Positions 56,527 through 64,000 of a stretch of 64,000 bases of DNA are shown piece after piece; positions within the stretch are counted from its first letter, which is position 1; every line of letters begins with the position of its first letter. Source of the DNA: Candidatus Thorarchaeota archaeon (lineage in GTDB: Archaea > Asgardarchaeota > Thorarchaeia > Thorarchaeales > Thorarchaeaceae); contig JBHLRS010000001.1 in the NCBI GenBank assembly GCA_048882325.1, forward strand, positions 32,001-96,000. The letters are read 5' to 3'. The position numbers and the translations under genes are program-made. Under the pieces are notes generated by a model. That model worked only from the letters and a program-made list of their open reading frames with translations. It was not told the DNA's origin and did no database searches.

Positions 56527-57762
56527 TTATGAGGTTGGCAGTCGGATGATGAATTTTGTACCACCTAGGTCTGGATCATCAACTAATTCAATGGAACCTT
56601 TGTGAGATTCTAGGACAAATTTAGAGAGATATAGTCCGACGCCCCCTTCCTCTGATTGAGATTTTGATCCCCGTCGAAAGAGAAATTCTCTCTTTTCAAT
56701 AGGAATGCCCGGCCCATCATCACTTATAGAGATTACAAAGTTATCTTCTTCAAGAGAAATATCAACAAAAACAGTTGGTGATTCTCCAGCATATTGCGCC
56801 GCATTTCTGAAGATATTTTGCCAAACCATTGGAAGAAGTCTGCTTGCAGTGAAAGCACACTTGCTAACTTCTTTTTCGCCAGTGACTTTTATTTTCAGAT
56901 GTCTATGTGTCTTTTGAGAATCGAGTGCAACTTCCTCTATATGTTTGACTAAATCCATTTCTGGTAGCTCAAGTGGCATAGAAAAGACATGAAGTAATTG
57001 CACCATTCTATTGCCAAGGTCAATTGATTGAGTGAGATTCTGATTGACTTTATTGATGTCGATATCAAGAAACAGCTGAGCCAGCTCAATTGAGCTTAGA
57101 ATGGCCTGCAAATCATTCCTTAGATCGTGTCGCAACAGCTGGGTATACACCTCAAGCTCCCACTGTTGTCTTGTCAAGTCACTATTGCTCTGCTCAACCT
57201 GCTCAATGTATTGCTCCAATGTATAGGATGCTACAAGAATGAAGAATGTAACAACGATAGCAGTACCAATGTGACTGTCAAATTCCGTAATTGGAATGCC
57301 AAATATGACATTCACAATGAAAACCATTGTTGAAATCATAACTACTCCTTGAGCAAAAACAACAGTAGTCCTTGTGAGTAATGCACCACCCACTAGTGCA
57401 ACCATAAACCAGACCATTAATCGAGGTAGATCATTTGGTTGCCAGCTAGTCCCAAATAGAAAGATGGTGACTGGTAATATTGTGATTGCAGCTACCGTAG
57501 TTGTCTGAACCACATCATAATACTTGGTTCTTGTTCCCAAATACATGAAGAACACTAGTAGAATCGCACTAAGATATGTGGGAGTGGAGAAGAAAACGAG
57601 TTCACTTGTGAATTGCGCGAAGGAGAATATTGGAATTGCGATGAGAAGAAATGACGAGAGGAGACGTGATTGCTGTCTTTTTCTCAAACCCTGTACGGAT
57701 GGATGTGGTTCGATAAGACTGGAAAGGAATTTACCCACATCACTGAGAAACCCCTCATTCAT
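56527..57762 (-). CDS. Membrane sensor histidine kinase
   Basis: About 6 TM; H-box LRHDLRN, N-box NIFRNA, G1 DDGPGI, G2 GVGLY. Confidence 0.92.
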   Translation of the reverse strand: MNEGFLSDVGKFLSSLIEPHPSVQGLRKRQQSRLLSSFLLIAIPIFSFAQFTSELVFFSTPTYLSAILLVFFMYLGTRTKYYDVVQTTTVAAITILPVTIFLFGTSWQPNDLPRLMVWFMVALVGGALLTRTTVVFAQGVVMISTMVFIVNVIFGIPITEFDSHIGTAIVVTFFILVASYTLEQYIEQVEQSNSDLTRQQWELEVYTQLLRHDLRNDLQAILSSIELAQLFLDIDINKVNQNLTQSIDLGNRMVQLLHVFSMPLELPEMDLVKHIEEVALDSQKTHRHLKIKVTGEKEVSKCAFTASRLLPMVWQNIFRNAAQYAGESPTVFVDISLEEDNFVISISDDGPGIPIEKREFLFRRGSKSQSEEGGVGLYLSKFVLESHKGSIELVDDPDLGGTKFIIRLPTS

Positions 57763-61174: not shown

Positions 61175-61603
61175 CTATGAAACAAAGATTTTGTCAGCAA
61201 TGTGTCTGACTATGGCTCTAGTGATACCACTAACAAAACCCGTCGCAATTGTTTTGTCTAAGCATTCTATAAGTACGGGATTTTCCACCACCTTTCTGAC
61301 AAATTCATTCAGACTTTGAATAGCATGTGATGTCTGTCCCTTGAAGACATAACTAAACAAGAGTGAGGATTCATGTTTCATAATCATGGTATATTCACCA
61401 ATAGTGACACTATCAAGAGGTCTTGCGAATATCTTGTCAGTCAGAAAAACAAGGGCAGTCAAAAAACTAGAAACAAGATTTTCATTATCTTTCAGGTATG
61501 GGTGGAACTCTACAGACGCAAGATTAACACCTGTTTGGGCGGCTGAGAGAAACAGTTGAACTGGCTCTTCTTTCATGTTTTCCACGTCAGTAATTGCTAA
61601 CAT
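61175..61603 (-). CDS. Longin-like domain protein
   Basis: beta-G-beta (LFLSAAQTGVNLASVEF), helix LVSSFLTAL, strands VTIGEYTMIM / LLFSYVF, C-terminal helices. Confidence 0.65.
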   Translation of the reverse strand: MLAITDVENMKEEPVQLFLSAAQTGVNLASVEFHPYLKDNENLVSSFLTALVFLTDKIFARPLDSVTIGEYTMIMKHESSLLFSYVFKGQTSHAIQSLNEFVRKVVENPVLIECLDKTIATGFVSGITRAIVRHIADKIFVS

Positions 61604-61700: not shown

Positions 61701-63095
61701 TCACAGTCTGGTGGATGCTGTTGTTGTTATCCGATCCAACCTCCCAGTCAGTGCAGACCAGAACAATAGATAGCTTACCACAACCCAACCGTAGCCATAG
61801 TCAATTCCTGCAAGTCCAATCACAATTGGAGGCAATCTGATGACGAAGAAGAGGATTATTGCAATAGCTACTCCCAAGGGTTTTAGACTACCAGAAGCAC
61901 CACTTTTTCTCATACGCCTCCAAACTCCGAGGAATATCACGGAAGGCAACAACATAATCCCAATGGTCGGGAGAATGATGTATAGGAGATCCAGGAACGC
62001 TTGGCCAATACTTGTTGGATAAGCTTGACCGATAAGTAATGAGATCGGTGCATAGACAATCATAGGTCCTAATGCCGCACTCCTCCACCCAGCAGCATAA
62101 ATGGCTCCCACTGAGAGGAATGTCAATGCGTATCCAGTAAGGATGAATTCTATGTAAATCCCAAGTGGATCCGGAAACATCGAGAGGTTCTGAAGCATCC
62201 CCGTCATCTGTCCAATTCCTAACATAAAGAACGCAATCATGAACATGAGCGTAGGAATCTGCTTTGTTTCAGCCCACCTACCAAAGAGATATGATGCTGT
62301 TCCTATTGACAGGAGAATTGCTACTGCTCCCATCGATGTGATGCTCAAGAGGAAGAAGTCTGATGTGAACCCTGCTGATTGGATACTGACAAGAATAAGC
62401 ACTGGAAATGCAAAAGAGGCTCCATAACCAACCAGTTCAAAAGTGATTTTCTGGTCCGGTCGCAAGAATGTGAAGACAACCATTGCGGGACCCATTAGTG
62501 CTATGAATAAGGTTACTAATGACTCAGGTCCAATGAGCAAGTCGAAGTAAAGTACCGGAAGACCAGCTATTTGGGCAATGAGTGCAAAGGCGAGAGATGC
62601 ACTTGTTCCACGCTTGGTCTCTCGTGTTATGTAGACAAACAATCCTCCCACAACAATGAGAATTACTGATGGAAATAGAACTCCTATCAGTAGTAGGAAA
62701 TCCCCTGTCTGCGGATACATTTCTGCGAGTGCAAACAGCAAAACCGAAACAAGTCCAGTTGATGCTGGAATGGAATAGAATTGTCTTGCATTCAGAATCA
62801 TCGCTGCGGCTACACCTAACAAAACCACCTCTACAGCTGATGCAGCGTAAAAGGCATAATAGGTGTCAACCAAGATGGCTTGTCCAATTGTTTCTTCGAT
62901 GAATGTTGCCATTGCACCAAGGCTAAGGACAACAAAACCGACTGCGACAACGTATAGTGGTCGAAAAGCTTTTCGAGACTCTGAATCCATTCCAGCAGAT
63001 TTGGATCTGCTGTACATGATAATGGTCAGAGCAGCCACTAAAGTTGCCAATCCAAGATAGAGTTGAGTTGTTTCATATATTCCCATAGCTAACAC
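61701..63095 (-). CDS. Polytopic membrane protein, about 15 TM, apparently two 7TM units joined by a linker helix
   Basis: 15 hydrophobic segments counted by eye; PSVI motif in both TM5 and TM13. Confidence 0.65.
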   Translation of the reverse strand: MLAMGIYETTQLYLGLATLVAALTIIMYSRSKSAGMDSESRKAFRPLYVVAVGFVVLSLGAMATFIEETIGQAILVDTYYAFYAASAVEVVLLGVAAAMILNARQFYSIPASTGLVSVLLFALAEMYPQTGDFLLLIGVLFPSVILIVVGGLFVYITRETKRGTSASLAFALIAQIAGLPVLYFDLLIGPESLVTLFIALMGPAMVVFTFLRPDQKITFELVGYGASFAFPVLILVSIQSAGFTSDFFLLSITSMGAVAILLSIGTASYLFGRWAETKQIPTLMFMIAFFMLGIGQMTGMLQNLSMFPDPLGIYIEFILTGYALTFLSVGAIYAAGWRSAALGPMIVYAPISLLIGQAYPTSIGQAFLDLLYIILPTIGIMLLPSVIFLGVWRRMRKSGASGSLKPLGVAIAIILFFVIRLPPIVIGLAGIDYGYGWVVVSYLLFWSALTGRLDRITTTASTRL

Positions 63096-63098
63096 ATC

Positions 63099-63542
63099 CT
63101 AAAACACAGTTTTTCCCCAGTCGCTAGCGGATTTCTTAGCCTTTTCAACCTGCGACTCGGTCCATTCCTTCACACTCTCAGTTACCTCTGCAGAAGCTTC
63201 CTTATCATCCGAGAATAGCTCTCTCATCAAGGCGAGAGTACCATCATCGAACTGCCCACCATTCTCTTGAATCAGTTTGACTACTTCCTGGTTTGCAGCT
63301 AATGCGCTTGCCTCATTGGCTTCATGGAGTGTGACGATATGGTATTCATCGGAATTGCCAATCAGCAGTTTCATGTCTCCAAAGCGGAGTTCTTCCACTC
63401 TTGTGCCACCAGCGATCTTCTTGATGAACATCTGCACAGCTGACACAAAACCTCCAAACAGGGTGACGTCACCCTCTAGGTGTTCCCACCCAACCGATGC
63501 AACGGTTTCCCCTGCTTGGTTCACCAACATAATGCCGTACAT
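63099..63542 (-). CDS. Longin-like domain protein
   Basis: GIMLVNQAGETV, D.TLFGGFVSAVQMF, VEELRFGDMKLLI pattern typical of Asgard longin/roadblock-type proteins. Confidence 0.7.
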   Translation of the reverse strand: MYGIMLVNQAGETVASVGWEHLEGDVTLFGGFVSAVQMFIKKIAGGTRVEELRFGDMKLLIGNSDEYHIVTLHEANEASALAANQEVVKLIQENGGQFDDGTLALMRELFSDDKEASAEVTESVKEWTESQVEKAKKSASDWGKTVF

Positions 63543-63590: not shown

Positions 63591-63860
63591 TTACAATGAA
63601 CTGAACCAGTCCTCCGTCTTCTCGATGGCATCCTTTTTGCCATCATCTTCCCCTGAAGTTCCCAAAGCAGCTTCAACGTCCCTGATTTTGAATTGACCAT
63701 CCACGAACAAGACAAGTGTATGATTTTTCGAGCAGCTCGTCGTGACCATTGCAGGCAAACGTTTAGCTTTCTTTATCGAATCTTCATCAACATCAACTTT
63801 TACTAGAGTTCCGTCTTTGCATTCTGGACATGTGAATGGACTCAATGACACTTTCGCCAT
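63591..63860 (-). CDS. Small Zn-binding protein (CxxC...CxxxH)
   Basis: FTCPEC...CSKNHTLVLFVDGQFKIRDVE. Confidence 0.7.
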   Translation of the reverse strand: MAKVSLSPFTCPECKDGTLVKVDVDEDSIKKAKRLPAMVTTSCSKNHTLVLFVDGQFKIRDVEAALGTSGEDDGKKDAIEKTEDWFSSL

Positions 63861-63863
63861 TTT

Positions 63864-64000
63864 TTACACCCCTTCTAGATGCTCTTTGATTAGTCCCTGA
63901 GCAATGAGATCAAACATATCTGAAATTCCCTCACCCGTTTTTGCTGAAACCTCTACACAATGAGCACCATAATTCTGTGCGAACACTACTCCGTCCTCGT
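63864..64000 (-). CDS. Rab/Ras-superfamily small GTPase, C-terminal 44 aa only (truncated by the window; absent from the ORF track)
   Basis: Manual translation from 63998: EDGVVFAQNYGAHCVEVSAKTGEGISDMFDLIAQGLIKEHLEGV*, with G5 motif EVSAKTGEGI..F. Confidence 0.85.
   Translation of the reverse strand, partial: EDGVVFAQNYGAHCVEVSAKTGEGISDMFDLIAQGLIKEHLEGV

Follow-up and report, generated by a model that had tools for sequence, protein, structure and literature searches.

A 15-helix protein with two 7TM bundles, a probable membrane partner of a Rab-like GTPase module in Thorarchaeota

Introduction

The genomes of Asgard archaea encode Rab-, Arf- and Rag-like GTPases by the dozen, together with Roadblock and longin proteins, and it is largely unknown which regulator is paired with which GTPase, or how GTPases without lipid anchors reach the membrane. 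The Rab-like GTPases of Asgard archaea are without prenylation signals (PMC10933270), and the genes for GTPases and other eukaryotic signature proteins are mostly found outside conserved operons, with ESCRT and a LAMTOR1-like/Rab-like/DENN set named as exceptions (PMC10933270; bioRxiv 10.1101/2020.10.19.343400). Here, we describe a 461-amino-acid (aa) protein with 15 transmembrane (TM) helices, encoded on the minus strand of a 64,000-nucleotide (nt) stretch of a Candidatus Thorarchaeota archaeon genome (assembly GCA_048882325.1, contig JBHLRS010000001.1, positions 32,001 to 96,000; hereafter the window, to which all unprefixed coordinates refer). Gene context is the strongest clue to its function: as its gene always shares an operon with those of a GTPase and two small proteins, the 15-TM protein is a probable membrane partner of a Rab-like switch. 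We favor, with moderate confidence, the interpretation of the protein as one subunit, the membrane receptor or anchor, of a small-GTPase switch with four parts in Thorarchaeota-type Asgard archaea.

Operons of a similar kind are known from bacteria. The actinobacterial conservon CvnA-CvnB-CvnC-CvnD encodes a histidine-kinase-like membrane sensor, a Roadblock protein, an unknown protein and an MglA-like GTPase (PMC13343842, PMC4316618), and shares with the module described here the logic of four prokaryotic genes in one conserved operon, for a membrane protein, a small regulator, a small protein and a Ras-superfamily GTPase. However, CvnA is histidine-kinase-like, whereas the 15-TM protein is a double 7TM protein without HisKA or HATPase domains; CvnB matches Robl_LC7 and the 147-aa protein of the module does not; CvnC is a domain of unknown function where the module has a Zn ribbon; and CvnD is MglA-like where the module's GTPase is Rab-like (Pfam Ras, 5e-41). 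The hosts also differ, being actinobacterial for the conservon and Asgard archaeal for the module. By sequence comparison every component appears to belong to a different family, so the module is not considered a conservon member. A Ras-superfamily GTPase gene beside that of a small regulator, in the module a candidate one of Roadblock or longin type, is also what the module has in common with MglA-MglB and with the Asgard Rab/Roadblock/longin repertoire (PMC4316618, PMC10933270, bioRxiv 10.1101/2020.10.19.343400).

For the membrane protein itself, several partial likenesses exist. LYCHOS/GPR155 is a membrane protein with a G-protein-coupled receptor (GPCR) domain that acts on RagA through the GATOR1 GTPase-activating protein (GAP) complex, with no heterotrimeric G protein (PMC11525196). 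The likeness to the 15-TM protein lies in a multi-pass protein with a GPCR-shaped 7TM domain and a small-GTPase target, which for the 15-TM protein is a presumed one. However, LYCHOS combines a DEP domain with 10 PIN-like transporter helices and 7 GPCR helices and uses a long intracellular loop 3, while the 15-TM protein has a 7+1+7 arrangement in which loops are short, and lacks a DEP domain; structurally the two match only weakly, and sequence similarity is absent. Longin domains occur in the GATOR1 subunits NPRL2 and NPRL3. In SWEET transporters (3+1+3), a single linker helix between odd-numbered repeats keeps the repeats parallel, and the three-helix repeats transport sugars. Bestrhodopsins are tandem rhodopsins (R1-R2) in which a Lys binds retinal, with a bestrophin channel as fusion partner (PMC10962995). 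Both types resemble the 15-TM protein in having two like-oriented helical bundles in one chain, but neither is linked to a GTPase operon and no homology to the 15-TM protein was detected.

Eukaryotic GPCRs have seven TM helices and an N-out/C-in orientation, both of which are predicted for each half of the 15-TM protein. Unlike GPCRs, the 15-TM protein has no sequence match to 7tm_1/2/3, Frizzled or any other Pfam model, and carries two bundles in one chain with a linker helix between them; no DRY, NPxxY or CWxP motif was seen by inspection of its sequence, including TM3/TM7 and TM11/TM15. The module encodes no heterotrimeric G protein, the co-encoded switch being a Rab-like small GTPase. The 7TMR-DISM, 7TM-7TMR_HD and HisKA_7TM families differ in that the 15-TM family does not match them and has no fused output. 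In the papers searched, there is no description of a double-7TM/Zn-ribbon/longin-like/Rab-like operon or of a 7+1+7 Asgard protein. Among the Asgard-eukaryote structural clusters of a 2026 preprint are a 'class C GPCR' cluster and '7TM proteins' that are not further specified; the 15-TM family may or may not be included there.

Results and Discussion

A conserved four-gene operon with a Rab-like GTPase

In the window, the genes are arranged on the minus strand in the order Rab-like GTPase, 89-aa Zn-ribbon protein, 147-aa protein, 15-TM protein and a 142-aa protein. The four genes of the module are as follows:

63864 to 64000, minus strand: 3' end of the Rab-like small GTPase gene, which continues past the window end; the protein has about 178 aa
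63591 to 63860, minus strand: 89-aa Zn-ribbon protein (P0004), with C-P-x-C ... C-x3-H and the tail D-K-T-x-x-W-F-x-S-L
63099 to 63542, minus strand: 147-aa small cytoplasmic protein (P0002), termed 'longin-like'; its gene immediately precedes the TM gene
61701 to 63086, minus strand: coding sequence of the 15-TM protein (P0005), 461 aa from the ATG at 63086, with the stop codon at 61701-61703

Gene context was compared in the fetched loci, which contain 31 full-length members of the family, 29 of them with usable upstream DNA. A longin-like gene of 130-150 aa is found immediately upstream of the TM gene in 29/29 loci, the Zn-ribbon gene is present in 28/29, and a Rab-like GTPase gene lies alongside in all 29, heading the operon in 18 and closing it at the tail in 9. 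These loci include distant members from two other Asgard families. The gene order and the 0-12 nt spacing are retained across 21-76% identity and through whole-module duplications. Pairwise identities of the TM protein are correlated with those of the longin-like protein (r 0.94), the Zn-ribbon protein (0.89) and the GTPase (0.80), figures that are descriptive, as related genomes are non-independent samples. There are two module types, with an identical split in all four proteins. A sequence-only reading of the window had held that any signal must pass to a separate partner such as the adjacent longin, and the constant position and correlated divergence of the longin-like gene back this strongly, and complex prediction backs it weakly (see below).

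A second complete module is found in the same genome, on contig 12 (locus L005, 6049-8650, minus strand), with the order Zn-ribbon (84 aa), longin-like (129 aa), 15-TM (460 aa) and Rab-like GTPase (178 aa), so that the GTPase is at the tail. Aligned identity to the window copies is 21% for the TM protein, 33% for the small protein, 39% for the Zn-ribbon protein and 59% for the GTPase; by BLASTP, the 129-aa protein is 32% and the Zn-ribbon protein 42% identical. Other arrangements are seen in further loci. In L028 (G069 contig 119) two modules adjoin divergently, and L029 (G152 contig 3) has a tandem series of Zn-ribbon, longin-like, TM, GTPase, longin-like and TM genes, with one GTPase between two TM genes. 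The tail-type modules L031 and L032 carry a second longin-like gene past the GTPase.

The GTPase has its best sequence matches in the PDB with the eukaryotic Rabs Rab18, Rab14 and Rab35 (about 3e-32), followed by the crystallised Thorarchaeota Rab 7ezb (1e-28). Its G1-G5 motifs are intact, and G3 reads WDLGGQ, with the catalytic Gln. No conserved C-terminal Cys is found in the Rab-like GTPases of the modules. The 147-aa protein belongs to a narrow Asgard family with an invariant C-terminal Trp tail (..A-S-D-W-G-K-T-V-F; the Trp is present in 48/48 family members). Neither Pfam nor NCBIfam gives a match for the 147-aa protein, with Robl_LC7 reached at E <= 1 in 0/48 family members, and a sequence-profile search of the PDB with the family returned designed helical proteins only (E >= 0.14). 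Aligned with the Robl_LC7 paralogues of the same genome, the family gives an hhalign E of 0.048 in a plausible register, with 2/9 of the template open reading frames (ORFs) looking wrong-frame. The Zn-ribbon ligands and tail Trp are conserved in 21/22 proteins. Trp tails are thus seen in both small proteins, at 63099-63125 (..S-D-W-G-K-T-V-F) and at 63591-63617 (..D-K-T-x-D-W-F-S-S-L), and the folds of the two proteins are unrelated.

A different interpretation of the linkage is that the membrane protein has a function of its own, for instance with lipids or the envelope, and is merely co-expressed with the GTPase system or is its target, with no complex formed. The fold does not reveal the function, no catalytic or binding motif is assignable, and the prediction of a complex with the 147-aa protein is weak, all of which speak for this interpretation. 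However, mere co-expression does not readily account for linkage, order and spacing that are kept over such divergence and through duplication of the whole module, nor for the strong correlation of the TM protein's divergence with that of its neighbours. In addition, the family has no invariant His or Cys, which disfavours a 7TM hydrolase of the PAQR or ceramidase type. An independent function is therefore regarded as improbable.

Topology and fold of the 15-TM protein

The protein is divided as follows, with residue numbers throughout following P0005 (461 aa):

62463 to 63086, minus strand: first 7TM bundle, TM1-TM7, with the N-terminus outside (residues 1-208)
62373 to 62462, minus strand: loop after TM7 and linker helix TM8; cytoplasmic loop F-L-R-P-x-Q ... 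E-L-x-G-Y-G, the most conserved stretch
61749 to 62357, minus strand: second 7TM bundle, TM9-TM15, also N-out/C-in (residues 244-446)

Alignment-averaged hydropathy over a 56-sequence alignment gives 15 hydrophobic segments, and an AlphaFold2 model built on the 56 homologues is confident (predicted local distance difference test (pLDDT) 90.2, predicted template modelling score 0.88), with 15 membrane-length helices. Of the 23 Lys and Arg residues, 22 are in one alternating set of loops, none are in the other set, and one is within TM14; by the positive-inside rule, this places the N-terminus outside and the C-terminus inside. In the model, TM8 (residues 217-238) returns the chain to the outside, and this single linker helix is predicted to keep TM1-7 and TM9-15 in the same N-out/C-in orientation. 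Loops reach about 20 residues at most, which leaves the protein without a soluble domain. The 15 segments, the lack of a soluble output domain and the two like-oriented 7TM bundles joined by one helix were all proposed in the sequence-only reading, and all are borne out by the model, the charge distribution and the family alignment.

In structure comparison of the AlphaFold2 model, each half resembles the same 7TM templates across all seven helices, and the likeness of the two halves to one another is judged from these common template matches. The best rows are the adhesion (class B2) receptors ADGRL3 (8jmt_A) and CD97 (8ikj_R), class C GABA-B and mGlu receptors, and the designed GPCR-like 8oyx_B. 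No Foldseek row of either model against the PDB reaches E <= 0.001. Of the modelling and Foldseek comparison suggested in the sequence-only reading, the confident model and the 7TM template matches of the halves were thus obtained, while a match at that level was not. The model suggests two GPCR/rhodopsin-shaped bundles, in a likeness of shape rather than a demonstrated homology to GPCRs.

The seventh helices TM7 and TM15 have no Lys, and all 7 Lys of the protein are in cytoplasmic loops. The shape of the bundles would in principle suit a tandem retinal-binding rhodopsin, acting as a light sensor or pump. This identity is rejected, as neither seventh helix can supply the Schiff-base Lys, in agreement with the sequence-only reading; in addition, there is no Bac_rhodopsin or heliorhodopsin match in Pfam at E <= 1. 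The probability left to it is negligible.

The parallel repeat joined by one inversion-linker helix, as in SWEETs, raises another possibility, namely a transporter or transceptor in which the two parallel 7TM repeats form a substrate path and the GTPase, longin-like and Zn-ribbon proteins regulate or read out its state, analogous to SLC38A9 or LYCHOS reporting to Rag GTPases. Polar residues conserved within the membrane (E86, Q172, Q293 and R417) would fit such a path. The top Foldseek row of the whole model, LYCHOS/GPR155, is a transporter-GPCR hybrid, although the match is weak (E 0.036, template modelling score (TM-score) 0.27). However, each half alone is a closed GPCR/rhodopsin-like bundle, and conservation is located on the cytoplasmic loops, not along a membrane-spanning path. 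The 15 helices found differ from the 12-14 TM matching a Major Facilitator Superfamily (MFS) or other transporter fold that the sequence-only reading had named as a refuting outcome, with MATE, MFS and MurJ rows of the whole model at E > 0.1 and TM-scores of 0.12-0.17, a lack of match that does not exclude transport. No transporter is present among the best 50 structure-match rows of either half, and no transporter family is matched in Pfam or NCBIfam. We consider transport a minor possibility.

Conservation is biased to the cytoplasmic side

Mean conservation is 0.70 in the cytoplasmic half of the protein and 0.58 in the outer half (Mann-Whitney p 1e-10), and values above 0.8 are found at 42% of cytoplasmic-loop positions versus 14% of outer-loop positions. 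The most conserved region is the end of TM7 with the next loop and the start of TM8, where F207, P210, Q212, E217, L218, G220, Y221 and G222 are invariant columns. This pattern fits a surface for docking on the cytoplasmic side better than an external site for a shared ligand.

The membrane partner interpretation can be combined with these observations as follows. The conserved cytoplasmic loops and the TM7-TM8 linker would dock the 147-aa longin-like protein, which is probably co-translated, and would probably serve as docking surface for the Zn-ribbon protein too. Through these small proteins, the TM platform would recruit its cognate Rab-like GTPase or set its nucleotide state, and a GTPase without a lipid-anchor motif would in this way gain access to the membrane. 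The TM protein may be a receptor for a ligand or a membrane state, with the bundles conceivably acting as sensors, or a mere anchor, and the small proteins may have the role of guanine nucleotide exchange factor (GEF), of GAP or of scaffold.

Prediction of a complex between the TM protein and the 147-aa protein gives an interaction prediction score from aligned errors (ipSAE) of 0.41, compared with 0.01 for the best control. At least 84% of contacts agree among the complex runs, and the partner has a pLDDT of at least 64. In calibration, the ipSAE mark was reached by 58/80 solved complexes and by 2/110 mismatched pairs; scores of 0.60 or below comprised only 7 of the 80 solved complexes, along with both mismatches that passed. 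Together with the strong prior from gene order, the predicted score nudges the odds of binding between the TM and 147-aa proteins slightly upwards and proves nothing.

Several points weigh against the membrane partner interpretation. The complex score lies in the weak band of the calibration, with no predicted interface returned. The operon linkage by itself could also stem from regulation of a transport or enzymatic activity. The outer face is poorly conserved, which disfavours one shared external ligand and suits a passive anchor equally well. For the 147-aa protein, a longin or roadblock fold is suggested by a beta-beta-alpha-beta-beta pattern, from which its label is taken, rather than demonstrated. 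Finally, the family is found in about half of the genomes of one Asgard family, so it is no general Asgard GTPase anchor.

A more elaborate version, with two Trp tails and two 7TM bundles, is that one tail might dock per bundle. The module would then be an archaeal receptor-to-small-GTPase pathway, in which an external or membrane cue sensed by the double 7TM protein is passed through cytoplasmic cavities to two Trp-helix adaptors, one per bundle, acting as exchange factor or GAP for the Rab-like GTPase that lacks a lipid anchor. The Trp-containing C-terminal helices of the adaptors would enter the bundles as the G-alpha C-terminal helix enters a GPCR. Such a system would be a prokaryotic counterpart, and possibly a relative, of GPCR-shaped proteins with small-GTPase targets reached via longin complexes, LYCHOS with GATOR1 and Rag being the example. 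This version is speculative and in our view unlikely.

Internal echoes and the question of duplication

The sequence-only reading had pointed to three pairs of similar strings within the protein, and all of these are present. VLFPSVIL (residues 136-143, TM5) and MLLPSVIF (residues 378-385, TM13) are 8 helices apart, as had been proposed, and each is followed by a basic loop. The other pairs are RETKRGT (residues 155-161) with AETKQIPT (272-279), and RPLYVVAV (42-49) with KPLGVAIA (402-409). As echoes, these strings fare less uniformly across the family. The Pro and Phe of TM13 are invariant, whereas the Pro of TM5 is kept in only 21/56 relatives. R-P-L-Y (42-45) and R-P-L-G (402-405) are nearly invariant and pair TM2 with TM14, 12 helices apart, while T-K/R-R-x-T (157-161) and E-T-K/R-Q-x-P-T (273-279), also nearly invariant, pair loop 5-6 with loop 9-10, 4 helices apart. 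At these distances, the latter two pairs are out of the 7+1+7 register and are not echoes of a duplication giving TM1-7 and TM9-15. They are better described as conserved cytoplasmic motifs than as duplication relics.

These motifs change places from one bundle to the other. In bundle 1, R-P-L-Y belongs to loop 1-2 and T-K/R-R-x-T to loop 5-6, whereas in bundle 2 it is loop 1-2 that carries E-T-K/R-Q-x-P-T and loop 5-6 that carries R-P-L-G. Judged from the motifs, this swap is not accounted for by a simple tandem duplication.

Between the halves, 21 8-mer echoes are found compared with 7.7 +/- 4.6 in segment-preserving shuffles, a number that 1/200 shuffles gets to; the count is inflated by overlapping windows, and the echoes are spread over several registers. 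An hhalign comparison of the halves gives a single alignment, of TM2-5 with TM10-13, which is the register expected for 7+1+7 (E 0.042). With two-helix windows, the offset-8 register is the best in 8/12 cases, with E values of 0.07-0.5, none of them significant. Duplication is a possible origin of the halves, given the hhalign E of 0.042, which is likewise short of significance.

Distribution of the family

The 15-TM protein has no family match in Pfam (E <= 1) or NCBIfam, and a sequence-profile search of the PDB with the family alignment returned one unrelated chain only (E 3.1). When 1.84 billion cluster representatives were searched exhaustively with HMMER, 48 proteins were found, none above 491 aa. 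A word-indexed search found 68 proteins, each without a name or annotated as hypothetical; they come from bins of Thorarchaeota, Promethearchaeota, Hodarchaeota and Odinarchaeota and from one bin labelled Thermoplasmata. Among 301 genomes of the phylum, matches are present in 36/76 genomes of the window's own Asgard family and in 3/22 genomes of two other Asgard families, with up to three copies per genome; no match was found in the approximately 200 other genomes of the phylum that were searched. No family member has a fused output domain: homologues reach about 505 aa at most, and extra domains are seen in none of them, in line with the sequence-only reading.

Start codon, upstream junction and neighbouring genes

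The minus-strand ORF at 61701..63095 was verified and includes an upstream GTG at 63095. The true start is probably the ATG at 63086, three codons inside the ORF, and not this GTG, because a 100% identical 461-aa database copy and the orthologues begin at that ATG and the ribosome-binding site layout recurs. The junction with the upstream gene is arranged as follows:

63087 to 63101, minus strand: TAG stop codon, overlapping Shine-Dalgarno-like AGGA, 12-nt spacer, then ATG

From the TAG of the upstream gene it is 12 nt to the ATG, and the TAG itself is overlapped by an AGGA(G)G-like ribosome-binding site. The arrangement of TAGGAGG and a 12-nt spacer is found in most of the 31 orthologous junctions (loci L004-L035). 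In 23/31 junctions the stop of the longin-like gene is TAG, which leaves the longin-like and TM genes in frame with each other. The junction sequences suggest translational coupling of the two genes. Read-through of the stop codon, fusing the 147-aa gene to the TM gene, was considered because of the common frame and the one TAG between them at these 23 junctions. It was rejected because the TAG belongs to the TAGGAGG ribosome-binding site with its 12-nt spacer, and because the fusion would attach a cytoplasmic protein to an N-out helix.

Downstream of the TM gene is a further small protein gene:

61175 to 61603, minus strand: 142-aa protein (P0003), a weak, fast-evolving relative of the 147-aa protein

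It scores 14.6 bits against the 147-aa family profile (E 1.5e-5, in a 10-sequence search) and aligns with P0002 by BLASTP in the same register (E 0.1). No other homologues were found in the search, and there is no Pfam or NCBIfam match. Only one other locus has a gene of this type after its TM gene, and the 142-aa protein is thus no fixed component of the module. From these matches the 142-aa protein is probably a fast-evolving extra copy of the 147-aa family.

Past the window end, a 273-aa protein is encoded directly upstream of the GTPase gene (L004, 6394-7215, minus strand), followed by a divergent gene for a 614-aa protein with PAS-like repeats (L004, 7384-9228, plus strand), the N-terminal region of which resembles that of the 273-aa protein. 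These two proteins may be operon regulators. Elsewhere in the window, 56527-57762 (minus strand) encodes a 411-aa protein that has several membrane helices at its N-terminus and, in its C-terminal part, reads like a histidine-kinase ATPase domain; in other genomes, no linkage of it to the module is seen.

Significance

The role of the 15-TM protein as the membrane partner of a GTPase module is well motivated but inferred, as are all the functional steps; the family is mainly found in one Asgard family, and its likeness to GPCRs is of shape only. The module is a defined set of one GTPase, two small candidate regulators and one receptor-shaped membrane protein that travel and diverge together, and for this reason it lends itself directly to expression, co-purification and assay. 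Should binding and regulation be confirmed, this would be an archaeal 7TM protein acting through a small GTPase, of a kind not found described in the papers searched, and it would bear on the origin of receptor-GTPase coupling and of membrane identity systems.

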